Shown one piece after another: positions 15,431-62,800 of a DNA stretch of 64,000 nucleotides. This DNA comes from Lingula anatina. Taxonomy: Eukaryota; Animalia; Brachiopoda. The position numbers and the translations under genes were made by a program. The first letter of the stretch is position 1. Each line of letters begins with the position of its first letter. The notes under the pieces were generated by a model, which was not told the DNA's origin, made no database searches, and was given only the letters and a program-made list of their open reading frames with translations. The DNA lies in contig CM120645.1 of the NCBI GenBank assembly GCA_051362555.1, positions 24,580,934-24,644,933 of the forward strand, read 5' to 3'.

Positions 15431-18400
15431 ATGAGTTTGGAAGTAATTGTTCCGTCTGGGTTGACAGACTTGCTTACGCCGTTCGTAGTGGCTGTCCTGC
15501 GAGATGGACCGGACGATTTGGTGGATTTTGCTGCAAATTACTTCAATGAACTCCGAGAAAAGAGGCAGGGAACGCTACCAGGAATGGGAAGGGGAGTTCG
15601 TTTTGTCCCTGGTTCCGACGATGAAGCCATGCAAACGGACTCTGACGATGAACCAATGCCAGGTGAGAGTGAACGCAAATCTGTTGTCAGCACTCATTTG
15701 TTGTACAAGTGATATAAACCGCAATAAGTCGTTAGGAACACCAGTAATTATATCGCTGTACAAAGGTAATTGGTTCGAAGTTTTGTTGAAAGGTGTATAA
15801 GTCTCCAATTTGACATTTTGCCCCAGGTTACATCGCCCAGCCAACCAAAGGCTGATAACTTACTTGATAAAGAAAAAAATCCCTTCTCTCAGTGAAAACC
15901 AGATTTCAGCACAGGTGGAGGAGAACATGTGGTTCAGTACTTTGTGTAAATATTGTGCCAGTCTTGTAACATCCCACAGAATTTTCTCCTCAAATAATTG
16001 CAAACAGCTCTAGGGTAAACAAGACAGCATCTTCAAATAATTGATGTAATAATGTACTCCCCCATGAATTACTTCTCGCTTTGAACAGTTATAGACTAAC
16101 GAATACTGAATACAATAACACAATATGTGCTTGTTTTTTTCAAAAAAGATTAAGAATATAAGCATGTCATTATAAAAAGGGATGCATAGTGTAATTACTT
16201 TATTCCATCTTCTATTTATAAATAAAAAATAACATAAAGCCTGTCATATAGAAAAGAAAGACCTCATAAACCCTTGAAAGCTCATGATTTCGATTAGCAT
16301 TTCTTTCATTTTGTTTGGATTATATGAAATGCCAGTTCTCTCAATCTTTTAATCTGTCAGTTTTCAGATGTTGATGTTTCATCTTGATCAGCTCAGTTGG
16401 AAGGTCTTGTTCAGTATCAAAATAAAAGAATTGGCATAAAGTTGGTCGAGAAAAGATTAATCGGTATAGAAATGGGATCTTGATATTCTTAAACTGCATC
16501 TTCTAGTTATTGATCATGTTCTAATGGGATTGTTTTCATTTTACTGATTAAGTTGGGAATTTCATGTTTCTAGATTAGCTGTATACAGTTGTATTGAACA
16601 GATGGGCATCCTTGATTGGATTTGAATTGTTATTATCCATGCTATGGGAAGAAGTTCACTTCATACCATTGGATGCAGGAGTCATTTAAACTTGGTGTTT
16701 TGGTAGTATACTGATAGCTGGAATTCATAGTATTTCTAATAATTGTGTCTCTAGTACAGGACGTAAGGAATTCATGTGTGAAAAGAGCCTAGGATTTTGG
16801 CTGTAGGTAATAGAACATCAAATATTGAACAGACCAAATTGAAGATTGGCCTGCTGCTGGTAGAGAATAGATTTTTCTTAAGACACAAGTTAGTTCCTTG
16901 CTTTGTGCTTAGCTATAAAGTTAGCTTAACGTGGACATGACGGAGGTTTGTGATGCGGCAGATGGGTGTGTCAAGCAGCGAGAGAGACGGGGGGCTGTCG
17001 ATTCCGCAGTAGGTAAGATGCTGTACTCTGGACAGAGTCAAATGTCAGCTTTATACATTTCTAAAGCATGGTTGTAAGTACTCTAAATATGAAATATTGA
17101 CTTCTGCAGGCTACCCATGTTCGAATTATATTCCTGATCATTTGTCACAGTATGTTTATCTCAGAAACTGGCATACTGTTTAATTGTTTTTCCTGGTGCC
17201 ATAGCAATGCAGAAAATATACTTTGGGAAATAATTTGAATCACATAGGCAACATTATATGCCTTTCTTTCATGTTTTTTAATTGAGATATACAGACTCGC
17301 ATTTCTATGCTGCCTAAGGCATTAGGTGTCATTAGATTGTATGCCAGCATTTACAACTGTTTAAGGGATATTCCGTCCATTAACACCTGTGATAGTTTCC
17401 CCAGATGTAGACATTTGATCTTGATTACATTTGAGACGTAGGTTTAAAAGAATTGGATGATTTTAGTTGCTATTTTGTTACTATAGGCTAATTATAGGTT
17501 CACCCAAGAGGACACGGGGTGGTATATTAAGGTTAAGTAGCCATAGTGTTCAGATCAATCAACCGTTTCCTGCAGTTTCACTGTCAATAGTTCATCATTT
17601 TCCACCATTTTCATCTTGTCAGTAGAAATTTGTACAGCGTTTAGAAAGATCAATCTTCTCCTTCAATACTCTCTGCTGTGTTGTTTACATATCTGTCTGT
17701 CTTGCCGTATAAATAAACCTGTACTGGTGAGATAAAGCCAATGGTTTGTTTTATAATCAGAGATCACCTGTACATTTTACATCCGTCTAAGTGCAGTTGG
17801 TGTGCCTGGTAGAAATGGATTTTTAAATAAAGCAAGTTCTGACAGCTAAATCCTAACCACCAGAGGTTTAATTAAAGCACATAAAAAGGGACCACTCTTT
17901 TGGACTTACAACAGTACGAGTTTTATGGTTGTGTTCTCGAGATATAAAAATAACACAGCCTATTTCCTACAGGTTTTTGCTTTATTTCTACTCTCTGTAA
18001 AATTCTGTAATATGTCAGCAAAATGTCTATAATCCATTATTTTACAGTTGAAATGTGAATGTGTTGTCTTAACTGAAATCATATATGGTTCCTTAACATT
18101 TTATCTTAGAGTGGTTTCAAATTTAAACAAAACATGTAGTGAAGTTTAAATCCTTTTAGCATTGTAAGATACTAAAGGCATTGAATGATTGTTAATGAAT
18201 TACCAAAAAAAAATGGTTTTTTGAAACCTTAAACTCATCATACTAGCAAATGTATGATTTGTATGATGGACCCAGGATTTAATAATAAATATTGCTGCCC
18301 CAGACCTTTAATTTATATTCTGAAAAATGAAAATGTTGGTGTTTAGTGAGGTGTGAGGTGATGATTATGGCATGTATGTATGCTATACAAAACAACTTTA

Positions 18401-26200: not shown

Positions 26201-29200
26201 ACGAGACTGTACATTACATCATCCAGGAATCCCCCAACCTCAGCCAGTCACAAAATAGCATTTGTAAGTGAAACTGAGGTTAATAAATTATGTATAATTA
26301 GCTGGGAACTCCCCGAGATTTTCACCCCGTCTCTCTTTTCGAATGTAGTAAAATATATCGTCCAGAAAAGAAACAACAACGTATTCCTTATATTTACACA
26401 TTCCCAGTCAGTTTGAAAACTCGCCGGACATACGGTCCGACGATATAGGATTTTTTATCGGACCGAGACGAAATTTTCCAGGCATGTCCGACGGTCCGAC
26501 GCCTTTCGTAAAGTCTGATTTTTTATATCTGATTTTGTTGTTGTAGTATCTTTTTAATAGTTTAACAAGAGCAAGGAAAATTTATACCTTTTTTTGAGTA
26601 CTTTTATTGCAGTTTTACTAGTGTGGTTGCAAAGGCGTTCAGTGTAATGCATGTAAATTCAGATACTAGTAGCAGTGAAAATAGGTTTATTCTTAGACAG
26701 AGAATAGGTCTGCCAATTTACAATGATAATTATTAATAGTTTTTGAGGCACTTACAAGTCATACAAAAAAAGGAAAGGAATATATGCAGTTCAGTTTTGT
26801 CGTTTTAGAAATTTTAAGGTTATACTGTGAGTAAATTAGATAAGTAAACTGTGACTCAGTCTTAGTTTTTTATTCCAAGGTAAAGAAGAACAAATGATTA
26901 AATGATAATTATATGTGTAAGTGATTTGGTTTTGTAAAAGGTGCAAGGTTTTTAACATCGAGGCACTGGCAATACCCCCAAGGTTGGCACCATTCCCTCA
27001 CTTAACATTATCGGCCAAACTGTTGACATTAGTCCTGTTTATGGTCTGTTGTGGTGGAGTTTTGAACTTCCAACTCCATGTATTGCTATGGTAGCTGGGC
27101 TTCTCAAAGTAAGCAAAGATAATAGAAATGTAAAGGTGCTGACTTGGGGGAGGAAAGGGGGGGAGGGGGCCTTGAACCAGTAGGGATCAACATTTTATTA
27201 GACACATATTTAATAGTAAGTGTTATAGTCTTATAGTAAAAATATCAGGAATTGTAATCTGTGGTCACAATTAATTAGTTACGAACCACAGAATAGACAG
27301 GAAGATGCAGGTATGGCTAACCAGGTGTATAAGTTTATTATTGCTATCCATATCCAAGGCAATATAATGGTGAAGTGCCATGAACTATGGATGAACATAA
27401 TGTGTCAGCAGTTGCCAGTCAGGTATGGTAGTGAGATTTAAGTGGGGTTCCAGGTGTTATTACTGGGAAATAGTGGCGCGGTGAAGTATGCTTCTTGGAG
27501 TTATTCTGAGCAGTGAGAAAAAGATGCATTTAATTGAAATCCTGGCTGGTGTAAGACAACTGATTTCTTCCCAACATCTTATTGGTTGGCTGTTAAGTCT
27601 CTGCAGGCATGGTATGCTAGGGAGTTGTTTATAGGAATTTCTTTACCTTCAGGTGGAGCAAAAGTGCAGAGAGAGGGAATGAGGGGTGTTTTTCTTTTTG
27701 TGGCTTTACGTTATTTTGCTTCCACTTTATGGCTGTAGACCCCTGCAGCCACTGGTGACATTATCATTGTGTTCAGTAGTGTGTGCCTGCAGCTGTGGGA
27801 CTGTAGGCTGGATAAACTGCAGTTCCTGGACTACTCACTTCAGTACTGGTGGGTGTGGTGATCAGCTTACCTCAGTGTGGATACCCCTCTCCCTTCACTG
27901 GCTGGCCTCACTTCAGTACTGGTGGCTGTGGTGATCAACTTACCTCAGTGTGGACACCCCTCTCCCTTCACTGGGTGGCCTCACTTCAGTACTGGTGGGT
28001 GTGGTGATCAGCTTACCTCAGTGTGGACACCCCTCTCCCTTCACTGGCTGGCACATGGGGAGTGGATTCCTGACTGGAAGTGAAAGCAAGTGGTGAATAC
28101 CTATCACTACAGTCTAGTGCAGAAGCTGTAAGAAAACCTGTGATCTGAGCTGGTTTGTAGACAGCATCTGAAGAGAACTGATCACCTGGTTGGAAAGGTG
28201 TTTTCACAGCAGTTGTCTTTGATTGGGCTGAGCTGCTGTAAACTTGTGTTTGTCATAGGGAGAGGAGCCACTGCTGCTGCTGCACTGGTATTGAGCTACA
28301 GTTTGTGTCAAGGAACAGATTGAGAGCCTTGTTTTCTGGATATGCAGTGAATTTTCATCCTTGCTGCAAGGTCTGACATCTATTTTGTACAAATTTGATT
28401 TGGAATTGGCATAATTAGTGAAGGGCAGAGAGCTAAAGCCTTGTAGATTCATATCTAATGTGTTACTGTAAAACTGCAATTTGACCAAAGGAATATGTTT
28501 TATATTTTGAGTGCTCTGCAGTGATTTCTCAGCTGTGCGCTATTTGTGTAACAGTAGACGTCTACCTATCCAAGTCGTGATTAGATGGAATTCAAGTCAG
28601 GTTTCAAAGTACTTAATGATGGCAAGGTAATAATTTCAAATTAAATCTGAAGCAGTCAATCTTATTTATGCATGGCCATTCTTTTCAAGGAAGGAGAATC
28701 TGGCCCTGAAATCCTTGAACTCCATAGCAGGAAGAAGAAAGATTTGATAGACAGCTGATTGCAAATCTTTAATAACACTTACTGGAAATGACAGTAGTTT
28801 TTTCTGGTCAACAGAGTGGCTGACTCCTTATTCTGCTGTCTCTGAACACAAGATACAGGGAATATTTATAACAAAAATAGACTACATACAGTATAGGGTT
28901 CATCATCTCTTAGCCTGTTCCACAGGGTCACAACAGAAGACTGGAGAGACGGAGAGCAAGAAATCATTGGTTATATTCTATTAGCTTAAGACCTCTAAGT
29001 GACAAGAAAAGATAGCCTGCTTCCTTATCTGTACAGTTCTGGACAGTTAATACTAACTGAGAAAGGCAAATTTATTTTATACAACATGGGTTCAATTTTC
29101 ACTAAGTTAACTGCCTGGCGAAGGTCAGAACCCATTACTTCTCCTCCTAGTGTGGGAGAGGCACCTGCCACTGCAGAGGGAAAAGATCAAGGTAAAAAGG

Positions 29201-35200: not shown

Positions 35201-38200
35201 ATTGGTTTGGTAAGTGGAAGATCCCAAGGAAAAATCTTAGAGCTGGTTGATGTTATTGTTTTTGAGCTGTAAATTAGCCCACACTGTAGATTTGAGTTTT
35301 TCCTTAGGTTCAATTGAAAGAAAAACTGACCCATCCTAAGACTGAGCTGCTATCCCTGTGTATACACAGTCGTCACTCGTTTATCAACTGATCAATTTTG
35401 ACTGGCTTAATTAATAATCAGTCTGGTGATTTTCTTTAGCCGCTTGGCTTAAAAGGTTTTGTGAATAAATACTTATATGAGAGTTACAATGAGTACATAA
35501 AATAAGATAAAAAAAAAGTTAATTTAAAAGATAAAAACGTTGATTTTATGTTCTTTAAAAATCAGAAAATATTTTGATATTGGTTAATATCATAGCATTT
35601 TTTTCCTGTCTTGAATTGATTTAATCTCACATTTAGATGAAGTTGTGACCAAATAGTGCAGGAGGCCATGTGTAGTTTTAGCTCATGTGCTCAGTTTAGG
35701 AAGCAGGGGCCTTTCAGCCACTATATCATCCTGAGTACAGGTGTCAGGCATTGGGGAGGTGGGCCAAAGGAGGAAAGATGGTGGGGGTACTTGAATTAGA
35801 GGAATTGTACAGTCATCTTTTGTAGTTTCCCTAGTAATAAACCATGCCTAGTTACCATGGGCATTTACTGGTGAAACCAGCTTGCCAGATTATAATTATA
35901 TTAAGAAAGGTCTAGCAGGTGTTCCCCCCACCCCCCTTGAAGGCCTCTGGTCAATGTTGGTGTGATCACAGTGTTAAGGTATCAAACCAGTTTTAAAAGC
36001 CACTGGTTTACGAACAGGTTGTTCTTCCATCATTATATTACCAGGAGCTATCCATGCCTGCTGATGGCTTGTGATCTATCATGAAGACAGCCCTGGAAGT
36101 CATTAGTATTGAGTAGTGATTGTCATGTGTATAATGTGACATACACAGGCAGAGAAACAGGTCTCTGTGCGCGCTAAGCCTGATTATCTTTCTAGAAATA
36201 ATCCAGAGATATCTTAAACAACCAGGTGGACAGATGTTGTAAATGTCTGAGACAAGATGGGAATATCTTGCTCTAGCATGGTGCAGCCACATGACCGGGA
36301 GTCTCCAAGGAATGGAGAAGTCAGCAAAGATAATACCCTCCCAGTTGAACAACAGCAGGATAGCAGAGAGTTCTCTAATAGTCCTAACTTACCACCAGGT
36401 AGTAGATATAGATGTAAGAGTTCTCTAGTAGTCATAACTTACCACCAGGTAGTAGATATAGATGTAAGAGTTCTCTAGTAGTCATAACTTACCACCAGGT
36501 AGTAGATAAAGATGTAAGAGTTCTCTAGTAGTCCTAACTTACCACCAGGTAGTAGATATAGATTGTGGTCACTTACTAGTAATGGTAGATTATGGATAAA
36601 GACAGTTTTGACTTATCTAAATTGTGTTAATAGTTTAAAGATGTAATATTAACCGTGTTCATGATAATTCAGGTGCTTTTGAAGTTGCAGATATTGGTTT
36701 CTTATGGATGTGGTTGATTTGTTTAAGAGTGTTTTAAAAGCATTTCGCCAAGTTTCATACCAGAGCTTCAGTTGAAAGTTGGTATTTATCTGAAGACAAA
36801 ATTTTTGTTATGTAATGGTTTTATCTTTAGTAGTCCACTAAGGTAAAGTTATTATTAATTTCAGACAAAAAAAACTTTTTATCTTTATCTATAAAATATG
36901 TCCAATAATGTCACTTAATTGGACTACAACACACTTATCTCGGGTTAAAGTAAACTGAATTTTTGTGTCAAAAAAATTACAACCATTATTCAACTTATGT
37001 TCTTTTTTGAAACTGTGACTCTCACTCAAGTTTTTTTTTTTTTTTTTTTTAACAAAAAAGGGAGAGGTGATTGTTGTTTGCTTTTGTCACTTTAAAGTCT
37101 GTTCAGTGAAACTTTTTAACAAATGCAATATGGAGGAAAGTATAAGATTGCATTCATTATATTAATTGGATCATGAAGTTGGTGTCTCATAACAGTGTCT
37201 TGAAAGAAAGATTGTGTAAGAAATTAGGAACTCAAGCTGAAATACATTTTCCATTGTATGGCTTGTTATAAAAAATGTGTTTCTGTGAGGCGTTTTAAAG
37301 CAGAAATTTGATGTATGGATTTTCACAGGTACAGTTGATGTGGATGTTTTGTGTGGGTTGGGAATTAATCAAATACATTTGGACTTGAGGAGATTTCATG
37401 GTGGTGGGTATCTTAAGTGTTATTCAGTTGCTGCAGATAAATAGTAATTCTGTGTAGAAATCAAACTGATGGTGTGAACATGGTTTGTGATCAGCTGTAG
37501 GGTTGTTTTTGATTGAGATTTAATTAAATAGGAGTGTGTGCCACAATAAGTCTCACACCATAACATGTTCTACATTGCCTGAGGTCAGCCCTCAGTCTGA
37601 AGGTTGTGTGCACTTGGCTATAATACCTTTAACCTGTGATGCCAGGCCAGTTCACCAGAAACCTCTCTCTCTTCTTCCCCCCCCCCCCCCCCCCCCCCCC
37701 CCCCAAGAATACTCACATAATATTTTATTAAACTAGTTTTGTTAGAGTAGCATCCCTGGCAATTCACAAGTATTATTTATTTATGGTACTACTTTTTGTC
37801 TTGAAGGATGTTATCTAGAAATCTTATTTGAGAAAAATATGTTATCTAGAAATCTTATTTGAGAAAAATGTGAGACTGTAATAATAATAATAATAATAAC
37901 AACAACAGCAACAGTAAATACTACTACTACTAATAATAAATAATAATAATAACAACAGTAAATAAAAATAATAAGAACAATAACAACAACAGAAAAAAAT
38001 AATAACTGTGAATAATAAAAATAGTGATGATGATGATGATGATAAAAGTGGGCCAGGATAAGATACTAAGTGAAAAGGGAAATAGAAAATGTTTTATGTC
38101 TCTGGAAGAGATCATCTTTACAATATTTTTTGCTGACATTACGTAGGGACCTTCATCCATAAATAAATAACAGTGTAAAATATATTGTTTATTTTGATAA

Positions 38201-41200
38201 AGATGGTAATCAGAGAGAGAATGTGACAGTTCATGATACTTTTCCGCCACTAGCCAGCTGATTGTCTTTGGTAAAATTAATAATAAAGGAGTAGGAATTT
38301 TTGTGAATGAATATGGAGCTTAATTTACTTGAAATATTGTTTAAAAGAACATTTAACCATTATTTATATCTTTAGTTGATAATGCTTTGTTTCTTCAGTT
38401 TCTAATAATTTGTTATCTGCTCTCTTTCAGAGCCTCCTATGAAGAACAGATACCAAAGAAGGAAATCGGGTAAGTCCACCTGTATTGGCAGTATGGAGAT
38501 ATAATACTTGTAAATCAAGTCAGGTAAGTCCAATGTGGAATATCTAACACTGTGATGTACAGGGGTTCACCATGTCTTGTATATCCTCACATTTGGCTTT
38601 CTCACCAGTAGTTAACAGAGACTAGCTTTGCAAGAATTTTATTTATATTCTATTTATCTGTATCTTTATTCAATTTGAGATTGTGTATTCAGCTATGGTC
38701 AAACAAAACTGATTTCATGTGCTATATGCTTGAGCATCAGTGTCTGTAAAAGGTTATGTGAATAAAGAGGTTTGCAGAAATCTGCCATGATACCTGCCCC
38801 CTCCCCCCCTCCTCTCCTATATGCTTCTCATTCTACCCTGTGGGGTTGTGCCAGGGTTAGACCTGTATTAATTCTCTTACTGTATCTAACATCCTGTGGG
38901 ATATGCTTCTACCCCCAGAATTTTTAAGATTCAACTGGGACAGCAAACTCGGTATTCCTGTGGTTTGTTTCCATCTTCAGTATTTGCAGCTGAATATTTA
39001 CCAAACAAACACCTTCCTTGTTTCCTTGAATTTTAACTATATTTTCTGAGATTCTAACCAGATGGTTTAAAGGCGAAAAAGTAATGTCTAATTCATATGA
39101 GACTATAACAGGTGTGCTGAGCAATTAGTCAGATTTAAGATACTAGTAACTGTTTCATCAGAATTCCTCCTGCCTGAGATATACCAGGAAGTAGTATAAG
39201 AATTTGCACCTTGCACATGTCTAGACTGTGGAGTTGGCTGACTATCACCACTGATATCTTGGCTAGGCCGCAGACACCCAGTGCTTGGAGATAAACTTTG
39301 CTGATAACATACTTTGGTTCCTTATACATTAATGCTGGTTATATTTGTCATCTTTATGAAGATATGAAGGAAAGAACAAAATGGGTTTTATAGAGTTGGT
39401 AATGGATAATAGTGAACTAATTGATAAATGAATGGTCTTATTGGGTGGATTTGAAGAAGAGACCAAAAACTAATAATGAGAAACACCTAGTTATGGTTGG
39501 GTATTATTTGTTCATTCTAAGAGCGCATTCTCAACGAATTAAGCCAGGCTTTACAAAGCCGGTGACCTAAAAATGGCGGACGTACATGAAAGAAAAACCG
39601 CCTAATCTTTTAATAGTCTCTCCGCCTCCCCACACGTCGTCCCTGCGGGGTACAGTAATTAAATCTCGGCTCCGTTCGCCATGCGGAAGCTACCTGAGAA
39701 ATATTAAGTGCGCATGCTCATCAGTTAAACTCGTGGTGAAGAAGGCATAGCGGCTGAAGGCGATCCAAAAAAAAAAGCTCTTCTGTTCTATTATCTTTGA
39801 AAACAGAGACGAAAAAGGAATAATTTGGCCCGTAGAGCAGCAATGAATCGACTATCTAAGGAGATAATATCACCAGAGATATTCACGGAAATATTAATGT
39901 TCGGAGCCGAGATTTAATTACTGTACCCCGCAGGGACGACGTGTGGGGAGGCGTGTGAGAGGCGGAGAGACTATTAAAAGATTAGGCGGTTTTTCTTTCA
40001 TGTACGTCCGCCATTTTTAGGTCACCGGCTTTGTAAAGCCTGGCTTAATTCGTTGAGAATGCGCTCAAAGTTTGTAGATTGTCCAATTAAGCTAAACTCT
40101 AGGTTGCACCTATCTGAACATGATTCACTTATCTGTGATGTCCTCACATTATATATATAAATATTATATGCTGTACAATATATATATATATATATTCTAG
40201 AAAACAGTGCTTGGACACTTTTTTGATAGGGTGATGTGATTTTTTATGTCTGATGTTTGTTTTTCTACCTTTGTTATTTTAACATTTTATCAAGGTGTAT
40301 ACTGAAATGGTGGTTTGAAATAACTGTTATCATAATGTTTTAATTCCCATGTCAGCTATAATCTGGTGAGAGGTGACCAGTTCAGGAGACAGCAGACTTC
40401 AGACGTGGGGTTTGCTCCCCTGCTTGTCTGTGTCAAGACAAGCCCTCTACTACTAGAGCCACCTGGTGGACAGAAGCTCCAGAGTGTGCTCTTGCAGTTT
40501 ACTCTATTATATTATAACCATAGCCTTAAAGCTTTTGCCAGTTTCTTGGTGCATGCGTGTAGTATAGTTATGACTGACACTTTTCAATGGAGAAATATTA
40601 TCAGTCTTTCAGCTACATGTAGTAATTAGTCATTAATGGTTTAGATGTTACCACCAGATATCAGCTATCTGAATTTTCTGCTCCATTGACTTTTATCACT
40701 ATTTTTTAATTTGATATGCCTGCATTTACATTTGTTCTGTTCTGTGACATTTCTTGTAGTAAATGTTGAATATATAATAATGGATTAAATCATGGTAAAA
40801 ACCTCTTTATATTGAAATATTAATTTCATTTTTTCATGATCCAGTCATAATCGTTGAGATAATTGTGTATTAATAAGATATGTGCCCAAAAAAGCCATGC
40901 ATAAATATCCTATAATTTCTGTGAAATTTCTGTGCTAAATAAAGAGAATACATACATTACTAGTATATATATATATATATATAATCTTTGGAAGAGACAT
41001 TTGAAAATGGATTGTAGAAAAAAGCCAGAAAAAAAAAATATGGTAATTTTAATCATTGATGCTATAGTGTCTTTTGCTGATATCTGTTCACCATGGTTAA
41101 AATAATTATATGTCTGTTTGTTGTTTGTCAGCTAGGGCAGTGCGCTATGTGAGCAGCCAGTACTTCCTGACAGTTTTATTATCAAATTACAAATATTGCA

Positions 41201-47200: not shown

Positions 47201-50200
47201 GTGTGAAATGAACCAGACGGTGGCCAATGATTCTGGATGTTGAATGAAGTGTAACTTACAACATTAAGGAAGTAATTAGGGGGATGGACTGCTGTTTTAA
47301 TTAAAGTGCATCTGACATCTCTTCCTAAACCCCTGGCAGTGCTAATTTGCTAGTGAAGAAGCCACTTAGTTGGATGACTTGACTTCCCCCAGGGACAGTG
47401 AGAGCTGTGCTCTAGTCCAGGAGTAGAAGGACATACTGAATGCATGGGAATAGAGAACCAAGGGATTGGCACAAATATTTATTACAAGTTTGAGTTAATT
47501 TCCAAATCAAGAGGAAGCCTCATTTCTTATGGATTTTGGTGAATGTCCAATGAAGAATCTTCATAGGAAAAGTATAAACAGAGTTACTTAGGTCCAGCTG
47601 CTTTGGTAACAAAAAATTGCCAATACCAGAATAAAAACTTGGCCGACAGTTCATGGAATAAGAAATCGTGAAATATATCAAGAAAATATGAGGACAAAGA
47701 TTGGAAGAGCATATCTCAAAGATTACATTTGATTTGTCTACACACTGTGAATAAGTGTACCTATGTTCACTGACATATTGTTCAGTAGTGCACCTCCTAT
47801 AACATATTGCTTCCCAGAAGAAATCACTTCAGTGTAATTAGTCAGTCAAGCCACCCTCTCAGTAATGGCAGAGTCCCCAGCAGGCTCTCCTGTACCTCCT
47901 AAGAGACCATTACGGAGGAGATCAGCAGGTAATGGCAGGTTTCTCTTGCACTGGGGGAGGGGAGGGGGGGGGGGAGTTCTGGCATTCAAAGAGAGAATGA
48001 TTTCTAATATGATAATATATTAATGGTGGAAACTGATAACAATACCATGCTGGCCTCTGTGATATATATATATATATATAATGTGGTTACTTTGAGCTCC
48101 ATGGACGTATGCCAGTCATTGTAAGTGCTACAAATGTTTTTACACTTGGCATTTTTAAACAACCAGGTGTTTGTTCATAATTTACTGCCACACTTGTTAA
48201 TTACCCTGTCACCATTTTTTTCAATACCTCCAGTGTATTTACCTGTAGGTGGACCAGAGCTGACAGAAACAAGAGAAAGGACAATGTATCAGGGTACCCT
48301 GATATGATATCTAAATACATGGTGTAGCACCTGTCTCAGTTATTACAAAGTTAAAACAGTTTACTAAATAAAACCTGTGTCAGATCAAGAAGTCAAGGTG
48401 TTTACCCTGTTTTACCAATTATATTATTGATTCATAATAGGCATGTAAAGTTAATTTGTCTGAAAACTCTAGCTAATAAGTTGAACTGGAAATTGGTTTA
48501 CCCCACATATTATACATGTTTGGAAATTGATCTGCTCTGACATTGTTTTTTATTGACTGTGGTCTCTAAACTACTGTAAACATACTTAAATGCTGGCACG
48601 TCTATTAATTAGACCTAAGTTATGCTATTAGATATACCCTGTAGTGCAGAAAAACGTCTTATATTAGATACTGTGCTAGAGTAATGGTTTTATTTGGTAT
48701 GGATCTAAGTTTTTCTTTCAGAAGTGTAATTTTTTTTGTCCCATCTTTTTTATTCAGGTTTTAACACTAAACGAAACAGGTAGTAAGATTATTTTGCACA
48801 TATTTTTCATGTTTAAACCAGCTTGTACTTGAACAGTAGACTGTGACTTTTCTTAATTCTAATTAGTGTTCTTTGTTCTCTTTCCAGTATCAGCAGAGAG
48901 GTATGACCCAGAGGCAGATGAAGATGAAGGGGACCAAAGGGTAAGACACTGTCCTCACACAATCAGAATCATTCTTAGACCAGTATAGGTGGCAAAAGAG
49001 GGAAAGATTTCTGTAGTTCTTGCTAAAAGTAGATATCTGAAGTCAGAAGTTTAGTCTATATTTTATGTTTATGTTATCTAAATACACGCCATGTGAAAGG
49101 TTTATGTAGACCACTGCTTTTTTCTCTGTTGCTACACTAGTACTATAGCTTACTGGCATAGATTACCAGGTGGTTTTATTTTATCCTTCACTCCTTATCA
49201 AACTACCTGCAATAGGATAATGATTACAGCCAGTGCAGTGCTGTCATTACTCGCTGCTGAAAAAAATACTGGCCTATGCAATACGATATGGGGAACATTA
49301 ACAGAAAAAAAATATAATGAAAAAATGAAAAAAAAATAGCTAAAGGAGAATCATACTTAAATATCTCATTTTGGATCTTTTTGCTTCAAAATCAATAGAT
49401 GTTGACTTAAGCATCCTATACTTAGGTTACGGGAAATAATTAGGTTGAGATATTTAGACTACTATAGCTCATGATCAACTGATTCTTTTCTTTAAGATAT
49501 AAGTCCAAAGAAAAAGAAATGTATACATTACATTGGTCAATAGTTGGTTTGGCTATTTAGGATACGGTAAACATTTTCCTTCAAATGATAAAATAAAAAT
49601 TAGGCACACAGTTGTTTTTAGAGTCGGGGGACAGTCTTAGAGGAATATGAACCAAGGAAAAACATTTGAGGCCTATGATGAAATGTATTATTGATTTGTA
49701 GCTTGAACACTGACTGTTATGTCTAAATACATCCCAGATTCCATAAAATATCTCTTAGGTAGTTGCCATGGATGATTTTAACCAAATTTAAATTTTGGGC
49801 TAAGTCATTGATATAATTAGCTAGAAAAAAATTGTAAGTATTCCCTTTACCAAGTTTGAGTATGTTGAAACATTTGGCTATAATGGGTTAAATACAGTCT
49901 GCTAGAGTGAAGCCAGACATTTGTATTGACTGTGCAGTGGGTTTAGTCAGATAATGCTGTCTTAGCTCTGGTAATAGTTCAGTATTTCCTCCAAAGCTGC
50001 TTGAACATGATTATTTTTGGAACTGGATAACTTCAGGTCATGACCATCTCCACAGGTCCAGAGTGGAAACTAGATAACATCTGGAAAAAGATTTTTTTTT
50101 TCAGTTTCATAGTATGATCAAGCGATCAACTTTGTCGTATTGCAGTCAAATTCTCTGACTAATCATGACATTGTAAATCAAATATTTTTATTTCTAAACT

Positions 50201-53200
50201 AACACAGACAACATTACAATGTAATAGTTAACAGCCACTCTTTTTGAAGTATCACTGGAAACAAATGGCATTGTTAACTTATATCCTGGTAAAGTGGCAA
50301 CATGGGTAATGTATAGAATGCCTGTCACGCAGCTCTTGGAAATTGACAGTCATTTAAGTTTCACTTTTGTCCATCAAGTGAGCAGTCTCAGCATGCAGGC
50401 TATTGATCATGTTACTGTTACTTCTCAGGTTCTGAGTAGACTGCCTCATTATCACTTGACAGGATAGAAAGCTATTGTCTTTATTTGATAGCACATTTTA
50501 TTGATCTGTTTTAAAAAAATTGCACATGCTGTTATATTAAAGCAGTTATTTTATATTAAAGGCTATCAGCTTTCCACGTGAACCGTAGTCTTGTCATACT
50601 CAGTTATCACCCTGTTTTTCTGAGTTTTACTTCTTAAATGAATACAGTTTGGTTCAACATATTAGATGTGGGTATTGAAATTTAATTTTTGCAATACATT
50701 ACCTTGACAAATAAAAAAGAAATAAACCTAAGACTAATTTTCTTGATAGTAAACTATGCATACAGTCCCTTTGATGTAATTGTTTGAATTGTTGTAGTTC
50801 TCTGTAGATTAAAAAAAAAAAACTTATTCTTCATGGTGTTAGTGTGTTTATCTTTCTAGGTAGTTCACCCAAAATCAGATGAGCAAAGAAAACGTCTCAG
50901 TGAAGCGGTGAAGAATATTCTTATCTTCAGGTCCTTAGATATTGTAAGTTAAAGATTTGGGGAAAATATCATATTTCGACATGCTTTATTTGACTATTTT
51001 CAGTGCATATCATGCAAACATTGTTCAGTAACATTTGACCTATAATTTGACCTATTATGTTGTAAATTACAATAAAAGAAATTATGTACATCAATGCAAT
51101 TTAATTGATTAATTTGACATTTTGGTTCTTAAATTGAACTGTTCCTCTCAGTTTGTTTGTATTTACCAGTTGAATCACTCTGGATCCTCAGTTCCTCTCA
51201 GCTCAACCAGATAACTGTCATATAGCTTTTCACTGTTGTTAATTCCAGGAACAGATGCAAGAAGTTATTGATGCAATGTTTGAGAAGAAGGTAGGTCCAC
51301 TTGATGATGTTCTGATATAGGCTGGCAGGAAGGGAGGGGGATATTGTTTTTATATTGTCTGTATTATGTTTGTGTGTAAATGTAGAGGAGTGTTGTAAAG
51401 CCATACAGTCCCACATGAGTCCAGGCTGTATTATGTTTGTGTGTAAATGTAGAGGAGTGTTGTAAAGCCATACAGTCCCACATGAGTCCAGGCTGTATTA
51501 TGTTTGTGTGTAAATGTAGAGGAGTGTTGTAAAGCCATACAGCCCCACATGAGTCCAGGCTGTATTATGTTTGTGTGTAAATGTAGAGGAGTGTTGTAAA
51601 GCCATACAGTCCCACATGAGTCCAGGCTGTATTATGTTTGTGTGTAAATGTAGAGGAGTGTTGTAAAGCCATACAGTCCCACATGAGTCCTGGCTGTATT
51701 ATGTTTGTGTGTAAATGTAGAGGAGTGTTGTAAAGCCATACAGTCCCACATGAGTCCTGGCTGTATTATGTTTGTGTGTAAATGTAGAGGAGTGTTGTAA
51801 AGCCATACAGTCCCACATGAGTCCTGGCTGTATTATGTTTGTGTGTAAATGTAGAGGAGTGTTGTAAAGCCATACAGTCCCACATGAGTCCTGGCTGTAT
51901 TATGTTTGTGTGTAAATGTAAAGGAGTGTTGTAAAGCCATACAGTCCCACATGAGTCCTGGCTGTATTATGTTTGTGTGTAAATGTAGAGGAGTGTTGTA
52001 AAGCCATACAGTCCCACATGAGTCCTGGCTGTATTATGTTTGTGTGTAAATGTAGAGGAGTGTTGTAAAGCCATACAGTCCCACATGAGTCCTGGCTGTA
52101 TTATGTTTGTGTGTAAATGTAGAGGAGTGTTGTAAAGCCATACAGTCCCACATGAGTCCTGGCTGTATTATGTTTGTGTGTAAATGTAGAGGAGTGTTGT
52201 AAAGCCATACAGCCCCACATGAGTCCTGGCTGTATTATGTTTGTGTGTAAATGTAGAGGAGTGTTGTAAAGCCATACAGCCCCACATGAGTCCTGGCTGT
52301 ATTATGTTTGTGTGTAAATGTAGAGGAGTGTTGTAAAGCCATACAGTCCCACATGAGTCCTGGCTGTATTATGTTTGTGTGTAAATGTAGAGGAGTGTTG
52401 TAAAGCCATACAGTCCCACATGAGTCCTGGCTGTATTATGTTTGTGTGTAAATGTAGAGGAGTGTTGTAAAGCCATACAGCCCCACATGAGTCCTGGCTG
52501 TATTATGTTTGTGTGTAAATGTAGAGGAGTGTTGTAAAGCCATACAGTCCCACATGAGTCCTGGCTGTATTATGTTTGTGTGTAAATGTAGAGGAGTGTT
52601 GTAAAGCCATACAGCCCCACATGAGTCCTGGCTGTATTATGTTTGTGTGTAAATGTAGAGGAGTGTTGTAAAGCCATACAGTCCCACATGAGTCCTGGCT
52701 GTATTATGTTTGTGTGTAAATGTAGAGGAGTGTTGTAAAGTCATACAGTCCCACATGAGTCCAGGCTGAGGCAGAAACAGTGTGAGGAGGTCATTCACTG
52801 AGGTAGTGCTAGCAATTTTTTTAGCTTAGCCTAATCGCCACTTTTTTTTCAATTTGTTATCCAGATGGTTATAATTTGACTAAAACAAGTCAAATCAAGC
52901 CCTTTTTGTTTAGCCAGTATAAGTCAGTTTTAGCATTTGGCTAAATTGGTGAGTGTTAGTGCTACCCCAGATTCACATTGACAGTTTACTAAGATAACAG
53001 TAGATTATGTGTGTTTGGCTTATATGTAGGTCTATTCCTGCTTCCATGGATAAGATAAATGAAATTCATCTATATTTTCTATTGTAGCATAGCTGCCATT
53101 GGCTAAGAACAATAGCTAGTATAGCTAAATGGCTCTGTCTGGCAAATGATTTTACTAGCTTTATGTCATAGCATCAAAACACCTGCTGCTGTCTTGGGCA

Positions 53201-56200
53201 GAGCTAAATAACTGTCCCTGTAATCAGCCTTTAGTATTAAGTTGCCTTTCCATGAAACACATGTTAAAGCTAGAAAACAAAACAAGACTGAGAAGCTTCA
53301 TATATGAGTCACTAGTTCTCTCTCCCATTGTAATCCTTCTATATTGGAACCATTCTTGGAGCAGTACAGTTAATTGATTTTTTCAAATGTCCTGTTATTG
53401 ACAAATTTGGGTTCAAACTATTTGTTTGTTAAAGGGATAACTGTTTGTCAATACATTGCAAACCACTCACAGAATATAGAAAATTTCAATTTGCCTCCAA
53501 AACAATTATAGCAATTATTCTGGAATCTGTGCTTGCCATCAAACCATATGGACCTTCATAGATGGCTACACTTCCATAATTATCTTTCAAGAGATTATTA
53601 CAAAAAAAAAAATAAATTAACATAGGCTAACTTTGAATGTTGGAATGGAGGCATTTACCATTGTTGATTATAAGAAAGTCATTGTTTCCCTAGGAAAATC
53701 CGTTTTTTGCCAAAACGAATATTTGTTATCCCTTCAAGTTGATTGAACTTAAATAGGAATAATTATTATGAAAGCTTTTTTTAGATGATTGCATAACTTC
53801 ATGTAGATCCTGTTATGTTCTCTGCATGAAGTAATGTAAAACATTGGCCCTTGCGTAGTAGATAATATATTTTTATAGTAGATAATATATAGTAGATAAT
53901 ATATGGTAGATTATATATATAGTAGATAATATAGAGTAGCTGATATCTGGCCTGATGCTATCAGCACCCAATGGTCCTGTCCACTAAGGTCAAGGTGCCT
54001 TGGGAGAGAACAGTGAGCTGGAGATTGCCTGGATAATGAATATGTATGAGAAAAAAAGTAATAGAAGAAAGGGCAAGCCACTGATCAGAACTGATTAACA
54101 TCTAAATGCAGTAATCTAAATAATCTGTGGCACCTCTCAGTTTGGATCAGTGGTAGAGAAAAGAAGAGAAACCAGGACTATATTGGATTATGTGTACAAT
54201 CCAGTATTTAGGACTGGTGTCAGTTTTGTCATGGTCAGAATTGCTACTGAGTTATCCATGGTTGTATTGATGGGTTAGGATAGTTTCTCATGTGGTTAGC
54301 AGAGAAAATAATAAAGGAAAAAAAGGAGCTCATATCTCTACATAAGCAGTAGTTTCAACTGTGCATTGACATTGAAGCTAATACAGTCAAGAGTTTGTGT
54401 AAGAGCAGCATATCATTTACAGTGTGAACACAACCAGTGCAATTCATAAACATTTTATGGGAAGACCGCAAAGTGATTATGACAGATTATTAATAAATAG
54501 TCAGATGTTCCCTATAATTATTATAATAGTACATTTTGTCTGCTCATGTAATCAATGCACATTACCAGGTGTCTTGTCTGCTGCGTGACCATCTTTATGT
54601 ATATATAGTTCAAGGATTGCAGTGTATGCACAGACATATTTCTTCCTTATGTTTAGTTTATTCTTTGATGACCATTCCTATTGCACATGGATGTATTCAT
54701 GCATGCAAATGCTCACATTTACTCTCCTCTCTCTACTTCACAGAGATGCAGTTTCAATGTATGTGTGACTCAATGTAGCATTTTGTGGCCTTTAGGTCTA
54801 TTGAACCTATGAAATTGGGAGCCATTACAAGCAATCAGCAAATGCATTTTGCTGCTGTTCATCCTCACTTCAAAGACCATTAATTGTTTTCCAGATGGTC
54901 TCGCTTGAAAGGCCAGTGGTAATTATTTACCAGATGGAATCTACTTAACCCACTGTTTTAATATATTTATGAATTGAGCAGCGTGATAAAATGTGGATCT
55001 GCTGGTTCTGAGATGTTGGACATGTACTGTAGATGGCACCACAATGCAACTCTGAAACCAGAATGAATCCCTTTTTGGGATATCCCAGACACTCGAATCA
55101 AGGAATATCTATCCTTGCTGGGATAACTTGGATACAAGGATCGGGAATGATATCCATTCTTACTGGGATGAACTGGGTCATTAGAGGTCATCTAGTATTG
55201 TACAGATATGAGGGGATGAACTGGGTCGGTAGAGGTCATCTAGTATTGTACAGATATGAGGGGATGAACTGGGTCATTAGAGGTCATCTAGTATTGTACA
55301 GATATGAGGGGATGAACTGGGTCATTAGAGGTCATCTAGTATTGTACAGATATGAGGGGATGAACTGGGTCATTAGAGGTCATCTAGTATTGTACAGATA
55401 TGAGGGGATGAACTGGGTCATTAGAGGTCATCTAGTATTGTACAGATATGAGGGGATGAACTGGGTCATTAGAGGTCATCTAGTATTGTACAGATATGAG
55501 GGGATATGAACTGATGAGTTACATTGATATACATTCAGCAGTTTTATCCCTATGGAAATCATTAGGAAAGCCTAATTTCTAATTACATTGATCACAGTAA
55601 TTTTTATGATGAGCAAAATTAACTAAGTCTGTATAAATATATTAAAATATATCACCACTGAGGCCTACGTACTTGGGTGTTTCAGGAGGAAAATCTACGT
55701 TTCCTGTTACTGCATTGTTATGTTCATGATACCTGTAATTTGTGTTAATTTTTCCATTCAAAATTCTAGACAGTTATGTTTTTTTTTTATACCCTATACC
55801 AATCTGAACAATATAAAATGAGCTTTTCTCCTATTTCTACATGAAATTTTGAAGTCATAAGCACATAGTCATTTTTGATTGGAAGTAAATTGATTAAATG
55901 ATTAGGCTATACTTTGAGTGAAGATGGCACACAAATATTTCCTTTAATAACATTTTGTAATTCTCCATATTCACTCCTGGAGCAAACTTATTTAGCATTT
56001 AGTAATTTCATAGCTGGACTTGAATGTCATAGCTTCTTGAGTTGCACAGAAATCTGTTTGCTATGGTGTGGAGTCTCTCCAGGTTTTATCCAATAAATTC
56101 CCCATTGTTGAATAAAGCACTAGTCTAAAGGTGGTCACTACCCCCCAGGGAGACGAGACTGGTGATTTGCCGCTCACTTGCATTTCATTCCAATTAATCT

Positions 56201-59200
56201 TTGCCAGCACTCTGGACCCTGAAGTTCTGCAGGGGTTTGCTGGTTGGGCTAAGCAGCCAGCCACTGGGAAATTGCTACTATTGATCAGGTGCTTGTTATG
56301 GGCTCAGATGGTAAATGGCTAAGTTGGAGTAGAATTCAAGGAAAAGGGATTGTTCCCTTTGAGGCCTGTGTGACTGCATTCACTGTAAAGGGTAACATTT
56401 CGTAAAATTGAAAAAAAAATGTAACAGTAATTTGTCAGGACAAGAGAGGACATGTCTTTGTACGCGTGTATTCACATTTCTGTCTGTAGTGGTTTTGTGA
56501 GATGGGTATATATAATACAGTATATATGTGAGATGGGCATATATAATACAGTATATCTGTGAGAGGGGTATATATAATACAGTATATATGTGAGATGGGT
56601 ATATACGATAAAGGATTTCTACAAAAGTTTATACGATAAAATTTTTCAAAATAGATGTGATTTTGTTGTAAATTAAATTCTTGTCTTGTCAATTCCAGAC
56701 ACAGCCCAATGAACATGTGATAGACCAGGGAGATGATGGAGACAATTTTTATGTTATAGACAGGTAAGAAGATTTCTATGTTATAGATAGGTAAGAAGAT
56801 TTCTATGTTATAGACAGGTAAGCAGAAGATTTCTATGTTGTAGACAGGTAAGAAGATTTCTATGTTATAGACAGGTAAAAAGATTTGTATGTTATAGACA
56901 GGTAAGCAGAAGATTTCTATGTTATAGACAGGTAAGCAAAAGATTTCTATGTTATAGACAGGTAAGCAAAAGATTTCTATGTTATAGACAGGTAAGAAGA
57001 TTTCTATGTTATAGACATATAGAAGGTAATAAGACTGATAGAAACACATTAGTATGTCTTAAATATCATTGAATGTAGTTTTAAAGACCAGTAAACATTC
57101 TCTGATATGAAGTTTTTATTTCCACAAAATGCTGGCTTCACTCTTTAAGTGATATGAAATCTGTACAGGATGTTAAAAGTCAAAAACACTGAAAAAATTC
57201 AAGATAGATCCAACGAAATAAGTCGGCAACATTATAACCGATTGAGAGGCAGAAGTTTTTTTTTTTTTTTGCAAATGTTCATGAGTAAAAGGTTCTGCCA
57301 TTTGCTCGAGAAATTTTGCTTTTGCGATGGAGAGTGAAGAAGAACAATGTTGTTTTAATTTTAAGTTTTTTCATTTATTTATTTATTTGTCCACTCATTG
57401 GTTTGATGACAATTTGATTATTTAGTAAAACGAAACTAAGGTCTTGGTAAAAATAATCTTATTGGTCAAAGCAAAAGGCAATTGTGCACTGAGGTTATTT
57501 TGTTTATACATTCATTGCTGGTTCACTTCATGCAGTGTTCTCTTGATATATATACATATAATTTGTATGGATATAGTAATGCTCTAATGGGAAGTTTGTG
57601 TTCTGTTTTAGTGGTACCTATGACATCTATGTTGATGACAACCTTGTTGGTGCTTATGAAAACCAAGGCAGCTTTGGAGAACTTGCCCTGATGTACAACA
57701 TGCCCAGGGCAGCCACTATCATTGCCACCTCTGCAGGGAGCATCTGGGCCATGGTAAGACACTAGGGCTTCGTTCACATGCAATATCTATTTTCTAAAAA
57801 TCTATTTTCTATTCACGGTATATCTTGTGATCACGGTCTGTGCCCTGAACATCCCGTGGCGTAATTACTGGCAGCGCGAGCCAGTTACTTCCAAAGCTGT
57901 AATTAATTCTCGGCGCTGCCAGTAATTACGCTGCGGGGTATTCAGGGCACAGACCATGATTACAAGATACCGCAAATAGAAAATAGATTTTTAGAAAATA
58001 GACATTGCATGTGAACGAAGCCTAGGACTGGCTTCTCATACCTAGATTGATCTAACAGGATGAATCCATCTCCCAGGGTTTTTTTCGTTAAATTGCATTC
58101 AGTTTAAGTGGCTTAGATGTCTGGCATGCCTACTGAAGCTGCTTAACAATAATAAATTACCCCATAGCAGCTTCAGCATGCATGACAGGCAATTTAGTGA
58201 GAATCCCCTTAGAAATAGATCGATCCACAGTTAGTAGGATAGGATCTGGGAATGGTCCCTATGTCTTAGATGTAGGCATTGTTTTAACTTGATATAGTGG
58301 GGTAGGATAACAAATACATATTTTGTTACAGCAGATTCATCATGGCTCAAATACTACATGGTCACCAAGCCAACAGATATCTTTATTATCAGCAGGGATT
58401 TCTTGGAGTGTGGGGATGGATTAATTCACAAAACAGTGTTTTTATCTAACTGCTTCAAATTTTGACATCACCACTATTTGTGTCATTTCATGACATTGTG
58501 ACCAAATAAAGTGATGTTATACTTGTGTTTTCACTTCCTACCATGTGTCTGACCTGGGTCTAAAGACCAGCTGGCATTTTCTCCCATGTCAATATCTATT
58601 CAGCCCTGTATTCATTATTTTTTATCTGGAACTGCATTACATTTAATGGCTTTCTGATGAACCTATACTGAACATTATAGCAGCAGATAATCCCTAGTTA
58701 AGTGGTATCATTGTAAGATAGAGAGGACACAGAATGGCTATTGTTGTAGCAGACCTCCCAGAGGGTCTAGCTACCTAGGGTAAATGACGTCAAGGTTGCC
58801 CTCAGACCTATGAAATAGGCTGCTAGCACAGAAATCTTGACCTGGTCAACTGGTACTGTTCCAAGAGATCTTTATGGATGTCATATCATCTCAGATGTGT
58901 AGAATGAGGTACAGATAGGGGAAGAAAGGGGAGGGGGAGAGAGAGAGAGACTTGATTTTTCCCCTGTATAACTCAGATAGTAATAACCATTATTTTGCTA
59001 TATACTCCAGTGGTTTTCTGTTAGCCTCACTGCACAAAGACATGGTAGTCTGTGGGGAGACATCAGTCTGTGATACATTATGTATTCAGAGTCCCAGCTT
59101 TTAGTGGCAATCAGCTGAATACTTTATAACAGTGCCATGTGTTTGGCGCCTGGTGTATGAGACAATATACACAGGTGCCAGCATAGCCTCTATGCCATCC

Positions 59201-59799
59201 ATTGCCTGGTGCATAAGGTTATCAAAAGCTGATTTAGTTTTGAGAAATATTACTCCTGAAGATGGTGTAAATTTTATTTTCCATTTTATCCCTCTCTCCT
59301 TTCCTCCAGGCCAGTGTTTTGTGATAGAGATACACCTCCTTACAATTTACTGTTGGGCTCTGCCTAAAGATATTTTCTTTAGCTTCAACATTTTTCTGTT
59401 GATAATCCTGAAATAAATATTTTACTTCCTTGCAAAAGGGTAAAGGTGGAGCCGAGCACAGCATGGGGGTTGTACATGTTCTTATAGAAATGTAGTGATT
59501 TTAATTTTTTTTATTTTTATCTAGGACCGTCATACATTCAGAAGAATAGTACTCAAAAATGCCTTTAACAAGAGGAAAATGTATGAAAACTTGTTAGAAA
59601 CTGTGCCTATGCTCAAGACACTAGAGGTAAGGAAGAATCAAGATTTGTTCAATGGCAGAAATGCATAAAAACTCATGTTTTTGCTTACATTGGTGTGTAA
59701 CATATATGTGCAGGAGTACGGGTTCTTGCACGCATGCGTGCACATGTGGACATACACATGATCTCACACACATGGCAAAATGATTTATGTGAGTGTGCG

Positions 59800-59853
<54 letters not shown>

Positions 59854-62800
59854 CTTAGAAAGGAGAGCTGGCAGCCATTGCTGCTTATGTGTCTGAATCC
59901 TAAGTCCATTAACATTTAGCCTGTCATTAAAAGAAATAATGTAATAGATAGGGAAATACCTGTTGTTAAATATGATACCATGTGCTTCTGTAGTTACAGA
60001 AACATGCTATCTGCAGGTATACTCACCAACATTTATTATGACCAAGTACAGGGGAAAACTTGACTGGAATGTATTTTTGGAGGGTCCTAATTTTACTGAA
60101 TGTCTAAATTGGACTTCTGTTGTTTATTTTGAGAAAGACGTAACTATGCTGTCAATTTATAAGCGCTCTACCAGATGCTAGTTTTGACATACATACATAT
60201 TGGAAAAATTATTCCCAAGTCAGATAACTCAAGATTACATTACATTGCGTGCATGAATATATCAGACAAGTATTTTATAAAGCTAATTAACTGTTGATAG
60301 TATTTAGCTGAATCATCTTTGTATTGATTTTCTCCTTCAGCCTTATGAGAGAATGAATGTAGCTGATGCCTTGATCTCAAAGACATATGAAGATGGAACA
60401 CAAATTATCAAGCAGGTAATACAGCCACTGCATAAACCTGACATCAGTAGATGTAGTACACATACAGACTTTAACTGATCTTCATTCATATACAAACTTA
60501 AACAGATGGGTAACCTTCCATGGGTTTAACTATACAAAGCCCTGTATGGCTATTATAGATACAGATGTTTAAAATATTCTTTGTCATATGAAAAGAACCC
60601 ATGACTGTCTTCCTGTCAATATTGTTAATTATGACAACTTGAAGTAGGCAGAGCTCTGAGGCAGGTGTTCCCATACTGTTTGTGCAGGTCACAGCGGGTG
60701 GTAGTGCAGGTACAACTTTAGTCTCATTTCTTCATCCACCTCTCAATGGTCATTTCATTAATATTTTCACTTTATTACTTCTTGTCATAGAGGAGGTTGG
60801 GCAGCCAGTCTCCCTACACATTGTCTCCCACAGCCCCCCCCCCCCCCCCAACCCCCATTGATTTACATATAAGGTACCCCTTTTGTCAGCTTCAAGTAGG
60901 CTCCTGGGTAAAATACAAGTAAGGTTCACAAAGTTAGTGAACTCCTTCTCAGGGTACTCTACCCCAGTGTGATGTATTTCTCAGTATCTTCTACTTCGGT
61001 GTGTTGTATTTCCAGGGAGACACAGCAGACTGCATGTATTTTGTAGAGTCAGGAGAAGTGAGGATCACTGTGAAGGTAAGTGGGTAGTAGGCTTGTAGTC
61101 ATGTGTGCAGTATTTATATAGGACAGATGTGTCACCCAGTCAACACATTTATATCACTGTGATGTGTTAACTGTGTCACCCAGTCAACACATTTATATCA
61201 CTGTGATGTGTTAACTGTTTCACCCAGTCAACACATTTATATCACTGTGATGTGTTAACTGTGTCACCCAGTCAACACATTTATATCACTGTGATGTGAG
61301 TTGTGTCCTCCCATAATTGTGATAAACAGATTTTGTAAGGCAACAAGTACTGAAATATTTTGGTCGTTTTTGTTGAGTGTCAATTAACTTAATTTGACAG
61401 TAAATCTACATGTTCATCTATATTTTACCTACATGTCACCTCTGTTTCAAACTTTTCTTTCTTTTATGTGTTGAAATTATTTCTTTTTTCAGAATGATAG
61501 TAATGACGAAAAGGAAGTAAACAGGATAAAGACAGGCGGTTACTTAGGAGGTAAGACACTTAATGTCACTAGCAGACCCTAAATGTCACTAACAGACCTT
61601 AAATATCACTGGCAGGATTTAAATGTCACTAGCAGGCCTTGCATATAACTGGAAGACCTTATATGTCAGATACAGAACCTAAATATCACTGGCAGAACTC
61701 AAATATCACTGGCATAATTTTGATATCACAAGCAAGTCTTAAATATCACTGGCAGAACTCAAATATCACTGGCATAATTTTGATATCACAGGCAAGTCTT
61801 AAATATCACTGGCAGAACTCAAATATCACTGGCATAATTTTGATATCACAGGCAAGTCTTAAATATCACTGGCAGACCTTAAATATCACTGGCATAATTT
61901 TGATATCACAGGCAAGTCTTAAATATCACTGGCAGACCTTAAATATCATATGACACCACTTGGCTATCAACCATGGGTTGATTATGCTGGTAAGGTGGTA
62001 GTTTATATGACTTATATATATTTATAGTTAAATTGTCAACAAGTTGTTGGTGATATGGACCTTTCACACATATACAGACAGTATATATATATATATATGT
62101 ATTACTTTGAATTTCCAGAGCTGGCACTTCTAACCCACAAACCAAGGGCGGCGTCTGCGTATGCTGTGGGTACTACTAAGTGTGCAGGTACCCTAGTCAT
62201 TTCTACACACTCTTTTATTGGAATAGAGGAAAAAACATTTCATATACATGAAACCCCATATTTTTTTTCAATTTTTACAAAATTGCAGGATGATAATTTG
62301 GATATGAAGACTATGCAAAAGGAGTGATGTTTGAGATGGAGTGTTTTAAAATATGAAATGGGGAAGGATTATTCGTTTAACTATTGTTGAAATGGTTGAT
62401 TTTGTGTAATTCCAAAGTGTGGAGCTCTTCTAGGGACCATTCCCACAGATATTTGGATTGATCTATCTTCCTGGGGAGTCTTACTAAATTGCCATCAACT
62501 TTACTGACTTAAATGTCTGTCACGCCTAGTAAAGCTGTTAGGGGGTAATTATCTCTACCCCCTAACTGATTCGGTAGGCGTGACAGACATTTAAGTCAGT
62601 TAGTTGATAGCAATTTAGTGAGACTCTCCAGGGAGTTAGACCGATCCAGATGGATCGATCTAGGCATGGGAAGAGGCTGTTCCACTTTTCTTTAGTATTA
62701 TAAAATTACGTGTTTATGTATATTCTTATAGCATCCATCTGTATTTCAGTGCTTGATGTTCAAGCTTTTGAGCGTCTCCTGGGGCCTTGCATGGATGTCA

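Follow-up and report, generated by a model that had tools for sequence, protein, structure and literature searches.

In animals, PKA compartmentation is accounted for by binding of the D/D domain to AKAPs, and lipid anchoring of the R subunit has been described as an apicomplexan alternative (PMC6152992). The locus considered here raises the question of whether an animal R subunit gene also encodes a lipid anchor in place of its AKAP-binding domain. The whole PKA RII gene of Lingula anatina lies on the + strand of the 64-kb stretch of DNA that was analysed (the window), and the initial annotation had proposed that a leader beginning MGSIFTK, encoded at 29086..29191, replaces the D/D domain and gives rise to a monomeric, AKAP-independent, membrane-bound RII.

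At least four candidate first coding exons were found in this gene, starting at 15431, 29086, 36257 and 47865. The canonical one (15431..15662, + strand, 77 codons plus a G before the phase-1 donor GTGAGA) encodes the D/D domain and linker (Pfam RIIa, E 3.2e-10) and shows 56-60% identity to D/D-bearing RII; it is divergent, reading LLTPF, with a Pro, against LLQ[DE]F in its relatives. The protein search returned no protein of at least 136 aa identical to the reading of this exon and no D/D-bearing Lingula RII in the collection searched, and the three isoforms of the RefSeq cluster all lack the domain, so that we infer the use of the D/D exon itself, as well as, from matching phase, its splice from 15662 to 38431.

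The MGSIFTK exon (29086..29191, + strand, 35 codons plus a G, phase-1 donor GTAAAA) is the alternative first coding exon of RefSeq isoform X2, and the likely 5' UTR or promoter-proximal RNA of this exon occupies 28140..29085 (+ strand RNA, sparse reads). Counting this exon, the gene has three D/D-less leaders, a point that the initial annotation missed, as it did the recurrence of such leaders in snails. The second MG leader, MGISCSS of RefSeq X1 (36257..36398, + strand, 47 codons plus a G), contains Gly2, Cys5 and Ser6. Within 36257-36563, a 50-nt tandem repeat starts with a unit formed by the last codons and the donor of the X1 exon, which gives several donor-like copies, and leader residue 11 is Pro in the window and Gln in RefSeq. 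The third D/D-less first exon, MAESPAGS...RRRSA of RefSeq X3 (47865..47928, + strand), skips the shared 39-nt exon that bears the RII inhibitor/autophosphorylation site in the spliced reading (38431..38469, + strand) and supplies an inhibitor site of its own. The X3 exon reads RRRSA/VSAE and the common exon RRKS/VSAE; if the register is kept, the phospho-acceptor position holds Ala, as in an RI-like pseudosubstrate, and with a shift by one RRxS remains. A switch of promoter may alter the inhibitor type. Eleven common exons on the + strand (48888..62880; 48888-48940, 50860-50943, 51249-51290, 56699-56763, 57612-57753, 59525-59626, 60341-60415, 61016-61075, 61493-61550, 62119-62187 and 62750-62880) encode the remaining linker and both cAMP-binding domains, ending with a stop codon at 62878-62880.

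Several other features of the window were recorded. Long ORFs arise because of intronic tandem arrays at 21185-23820, 33008-33671, 44415-45614 and 55033-57072 (units of ~105, 83, 41 and 48 nt). At 39521-40066 lies an element whose inverted arms (108 and 52 nt) are perfect, and at 43147-43469 a related, shorter palindromic element; we take both to be MITE-like. An open frame at 5271-5513, the upstream neighbour of the RII gene on the + strand, presumably resembles a BAP29/BAP31 exon. A candidate exon at 26408-26507 was dropped because its phase was wrong and a family match was absent.

The reading of the leader exon itself held up. The ATG at 29086 is in a strong Kozak context, TACAACATGG, with A at -3, although the G at +4 is forced by the Gly codon and the context is only half independent of Gly2. 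The 35-codon ORF runs to a phase-1 donor, with one G at 29191 followed by GTAAAA, and this phase fits the acceptor at 38431. Gly2, Thr6 and Lys7, the basic/aromatic KLTAWRR and a Pro-rich spacer (four prolines in residues 16-27) are all present as initially annotated. Gly is residue 2 in the RefSeq X2 model, which starts at 29086, and in agreement with this an in-frame ATG is lacking further 5', where the closest stop in the same frame is at 28996. No ATG in any frame occurs in 28791-29085; short upstream ORFs begin at 28672, 28788 and other positions in the 5' region, and these could damp translation of the leader. A perfect branch-point-like TACTAAC is found at 29051-29057, just 5' of the leader's start codon, but an AG in phase at a suitable distance is missing.

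When spliced, the window reads as RefSeq XP_023932346.1 (RII isoform X2) over 341/341 residues in 13 exons, with 29191>38431 as the first intron and GT-AG boundaries at 12/12 introns. This RefSeq entry bears an automatic name only, which makes no claim about lipid or localisation. A protein search with the leader frame returned XP_023932346.1 itself as the sole match among 7 candidates, and Pfam and PDB searches with the leader alone returned nothing meaningful. The X2 protein contains two cNMP-binding stretches (Pfam PF00027, E 4.4e-38), each with the GELAL..PRAA motifs, and an intact RRKS inhibitor site (RRKSV, residues 45-49). It matches solved chains of RII at E 1e-122 and of RI at E 2e-68, clusters with lophotrochozoan RII, and has no D/D domain by Pfam RIIa match. 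X2 is an isoform of the RII gene and not a canonical dimeric RII. Since the D/D domain mediates dimerisation and AKAP binding (PMC12608923), its loss would be expected to leave X2 monomeric, AKAP-independent and paired with the C subunit at 1:1.

To provide RNA evidence, eight of nine raw-read Lingula runs were mapped, with 6-26% of each run read and joints listed at three or more reads. The mapped stretches covered the leader without exon 38431, and the 29191>38431 junction would therefore be visible only as loose ends. Reads over 28088-29191 were sparse (22 in the first four runs) and fewer still in the following intron, with very low depth throughout. All leader-region reads had the first mate on the - strand, corresponding to + strand RNA in most stranded libraries, and coverage was patchy from 28088 and continuous from ~28620, with 28860-29100 covered without joints. 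Pooled sense depth, calculated without the repeat-filled intervals 30710-30985 and 31814-32089, was ~6.5-fold higher 5' of the donor at 29191 than in the intron behind it (by an estimate from depth, ~15 vs 4 pairs). The spliced joints and loose ends listed for the 8 runs included none at 29191, and, judging from depth, the two pairs that reach this donor (in runs X1 and X8) continue unspliced into the intron. In 4 of the 8 runs, 331 loose-end rows ranked behind repeat-derived ones, but the depth seen at the donor speaks against a junction being concealed among them. The mapped reads point to weak transcription at the leader position without revealing the spliced isoform, and the junction 29191>38431 rests on the RefSeq model. 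The dispersed repeat at 30710-30985 attracted thousands of RNA reads on both strands in 4/4 runs, derived from other copies that are mostly 90-95% alike.

NMT substrates follow a pattern akin to PROSITE PS00008, with Gly after Met, a small uncharged residue 3, Ser or Thr at position 6, and no Pro at position 7. The X2 leader fits this pattern, with Gly2 directly after Met, Ser3, Thr6 and Lys7. Of the 1728 seven-codon stretches in the window that open with ATG, 13 (0.75%) conform to a strict form of the pattern (MG, an allowed residue 3, S/T at position 6), as do two of the three annotated non-D/D leaders of the Lingula RII gene; for the leaders a post hoc p ranges from ~2e-4 (window background) to 3e-3 (3% background). 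A simple donor filter, crude enough to miss the X1 donor, retains four ORFs of 15-90 codons in intron 1 that run from an ATG to a phase-1 donor, and only the one at 29086 has the motif. The role of position 6 in NMT substrates is discussed in PMC3668125, and acidic residues next to Gly in relation to N-myristoylation in PMC6143667. The latter source also reports that PKA C-beta3, a first-exon variant with Gly2, is not myristoylated, and the motif alone is therefore not to be trusted.

Myristate alone is insufficient for membrane binding, and a second membrane signal is needed (PMC6143667). Residues 2-14 of the X2 leader have a net charge of +3, and the leader is without Cys. Such a second signal may be a strong basic cluster or an amphipathic helix of the ARF-like kind; the hydrophobic moment of the leader (0.08-0.35) is no higher than that of shuffled sequences (p 0.5-0.95), which speaks against a helix of this type. 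The only candidates for a second signal in X2 are Lys7, Trp11, Arg12 and Arg13. In terms of a dual acylation layout, in which Gly2 is accompanied by a nearby Cys, X2 has no Cys, X1 has Cys5, and the snail leaders have Cys3 and Cys9. Given the lack of Cys, the charge of +3 and the lack of an amphipathic moment, the description of this RII as membrane-bound is probably too strong for the leader alone.

We compared 206 RII-like proteins of at least 290 aa, a set in which 15 of the 23 members of the Mytilus cluster and 15 of the 59 of the oyster cluster were listed, and in which fragments and doubtful gene models occur among the D/D-less entries. The D/D domain was present in 170/206 and absent from 36/206. 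An MG start was found in 7 of the 36 D/D-less proteins (the Lingula X1 and X2 leaders, plus five entries that stem from three caenogastropod genes) compared to 0 of the 170 D/D-bearing ones. The caenogastropod genes, two from Babylonia and one from Littorina, share the leader MGCLFSYPCL, whose 10 residues are identical in Littorina and the two Babylonia paralogues; beyond them the leader sequences have diverged. Four more D/D-less RII, from Biomphalaria and Physella, start with a Cys cluster (MPCWCCFK, MMPCCCCAKK). Across paralogues and species, the snail leaders are conserved only in their first 8-15 residues, the site of the acylation signal. All 15 isoform pairs part 6-10 residues before RRKS, in the same slot. 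The proposal that the leader is an alternative N-terminus replacing the D/D domain is supported by the RefSeq X2 model and by a switch point shared with other animals, although the runs mapped here yielded 0 junction reads.

Acylation motifs are absent from the D/D-less leaders of Lineus (4/5), Tubulanus, starfish, lobster, Littorina X3 and Lingula X3, and all bivalve, abalone, limpet and octopus RII members among those listed carry the D/D domain. The full motif was found in 0 of 90 representatives of wide-search clusters (290-480 aa). The Lingula X2 leader showed no significant similarity to the snail leaders (shuffle p 0.12-0.3), making convergence likelier than common descent, and from these comparisons the Lingula and snail leaders likely have separate origins; homology between the X2 and X1 leaders was not detected either. 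In one Babylonia areolata RII paralogue (P0038-P0040), isoforms X1-X3 all start with MGCLFSYPCL and all lack the D/D domain, and this paralogue may have lost the D/D option entirely. Three D/D-less RII-like proteins, P0314, P0329 and P0266, start with MGLKKFLPCW, MCCGLFKKKEK and MGNVLQKLR, possibly representing further lipid-anchor leaders. P0266 (MGNVLQKLRNRSE) resembles the Lingula leader (shuffle p 0.002); as a protein selected out of 353, with no RRxS and without the motif, it was not counted.

Based on the data presented above, we consider the chances about even that the 29086 exon specifies a minor, likely myristoylated and likely monomeric AKAP-blind RII isoform, tethered loosely or weakly to membranes and likely expressed from a weak internal promoter. 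A rather unlikely alternative, though one to be taken seriously, is that a weak cryptic promoter or recent exonisation yields a low-level annotated transcript with little or no functional protein, the motif being incidental. The 0 junction reads in 8 runs, the two unspliced pairs across the donor, the upstream ORFs before the leader, the failure to find a leader homologue, and the ending of the sister exon X1 within a tandem repeat are all consistent with this explanation. However, it does not readily account for a motif with a background of 0.75% appearing in two of three leaders, for the correct phase and consensus-type donor, for the enrichment of RNA 5' of the donor, or for the conserved acylation-type leaders that snails keep in the same slot.

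It is also conceivable, if improbable, that X2 is a real D/D-less, monomeric RII that is mainly soluble, either because it is unmyristoylated or because its second signal is too weak, and that it serves to evade AKAPs and to buffer C subunit that is free, not to reach membranes. Most D/D-less isoforms of other animals lack lipid motifs, those of kin-2 and decapod RIID1 are described without lipid claims in the accessible text of the respective papers (PMC9692727, PMC12608923), and myristoylated proteins require an added signal, for which the leader offers a charge of only +3, no Cys and no amphipathic helix. Set against this are Ser3, Thr6 and Lys7, which suit the NMT preference, the position of K7/W11/R12/R13 directly after the motif, and the C-subunit myristate, which could act as a second anchor. 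Finally, the leader exon might be internal, with an upstream exon joining at an AG (29037, 29047 or 29066) so that Gly would not be residue 2. The AG at 29035-29036 does have a pyrimidine tract and a frame open into the leader, with the in-frame stop at 28996 lying further upstream, and the perfect TACTAAC at 29051-29057 would suit such an arrangement; yet RefSeq X2 begins at Met 29086, reads across 28860-29100 show no joints, and the only AG in phase with the D/D exon, at 29066, is without a pyrimidine tract, making an internal exon highly improbable.

If the leader does specify a myristoylated RII, removal of Met would be followed by N-myristoylation at Gly2, and X2 would combine with C into a 1:1 R:C heterodimer that does not bind AKAPs and partitions to membranes through the myristate together with Lys7, Trp11, Arg12 and Arg13. 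Binding of RII, and not of RI, exposes the myristate of the C subunit (PMC6143667), and the grip of the holoenzyme would probably be strengthened as a result, the off-state complex carrying two lipids. cAMP would loosen this two-lipid complex, rendering membrane residence cAMP-sensitive, and the X1 leader, with Gly2 and Cys5, would represent a stronger, doubly acylated version.

Both halves of this arrangement have precedents. Toxoplasma PKAr1 lacks the D/D domain and is targeted by Gly2, Cys5 and Cys7, which its authors contrast with metazoan use of AKAPs (PMC6152992), and for Plasmodium PKAr, also without the domain, a heterodimer has been proposed (PMC5746546). The Lingula isoform resembles these proteins as an R subunit without D/D, Gly2 there giving membrane targeting in place of AKAPs, and the Gly2/Cys5 layout of X1 matches that of Toxoplasma PKAr1, while X2 has no Cys. 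In contrast, the dually acylated N-terminus is the standard one of the gene in these two parasites, whereas in Lingula the leader is one of at least four first exons and the D/D exon is kept. D/D-less R isoforms produced through alternative N-termini are also known for C. elegans kin-2 (PMC9692727), as are the decapod PKA-RID1/RIID1 (PMC12608923), their function being left open by the authors in both cases; the accessible text of these sources does not speak of R being acylated and applies 'myristoyl' only to C subunits. The snail RII proteins (RefSeq models XP_070192799.1, XP_076469393.1, XP_055882904.1 and XP_059161440.1) are alike in their switch point before PP..RRKS, their lack of D/D and their acylation-type N-terminus, but unlike Lingula X2 their leaders carry Cys and are conserved between species.

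Placing a lipid anchor on a single exon is likewise familiar from this pathway: in AKAP18alpha/beta (PMC2174236) and in the exon-1 switching of PKA C-alpha1/C-alpha2 (PMC13425070, PMC6143667), one first exon bears a Gly/Cys lipid anchor and membrane targeting is determined by splicing. In those systems it is the anchor protein or C that bears the lipid, whereas in Lingula R itself would do so, in place of its AKAP-binding domain. A search of largely open-access literature brought up no acylated R subunit from an animal, and the accessible text of PMC12083921 and PMC13425070 contained none. A survey of AKAP evolution left out R proteins without D/D (PMC12083921), and such isoforms are thus easily overlooked. 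D/D-less R and acylated R are each already known, and the Lingula leader would join the two features in one annotated variant.

More broadly, we tentatively suggest that animals may have repeatedly built an 'anchor in cis' PKA, in which the D/D exon is exchanged, by use of an internal promoter, for a lipid-anchor leader; this would have happened twice in Lingula RII and separately in caenogastropod and pulmonate RII. The product would be an AKAP-independent, membrane-tethered 1:1 R:C complex that grips the membrane via two myristates and is released by cAMP. Should this prove true, it would answer what role D/D-less R isoforms play, a question posed for decapods and C. elegans (PMC12608923, PMC9692727). 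Conserved versions of such leaders are present in snails used in neurobiology, and provided that the isoforms are in fact produced and acylated, a second, AKAP-free route to PKA compartmentation, chosen by promoter switching, would exist in invertebrates.
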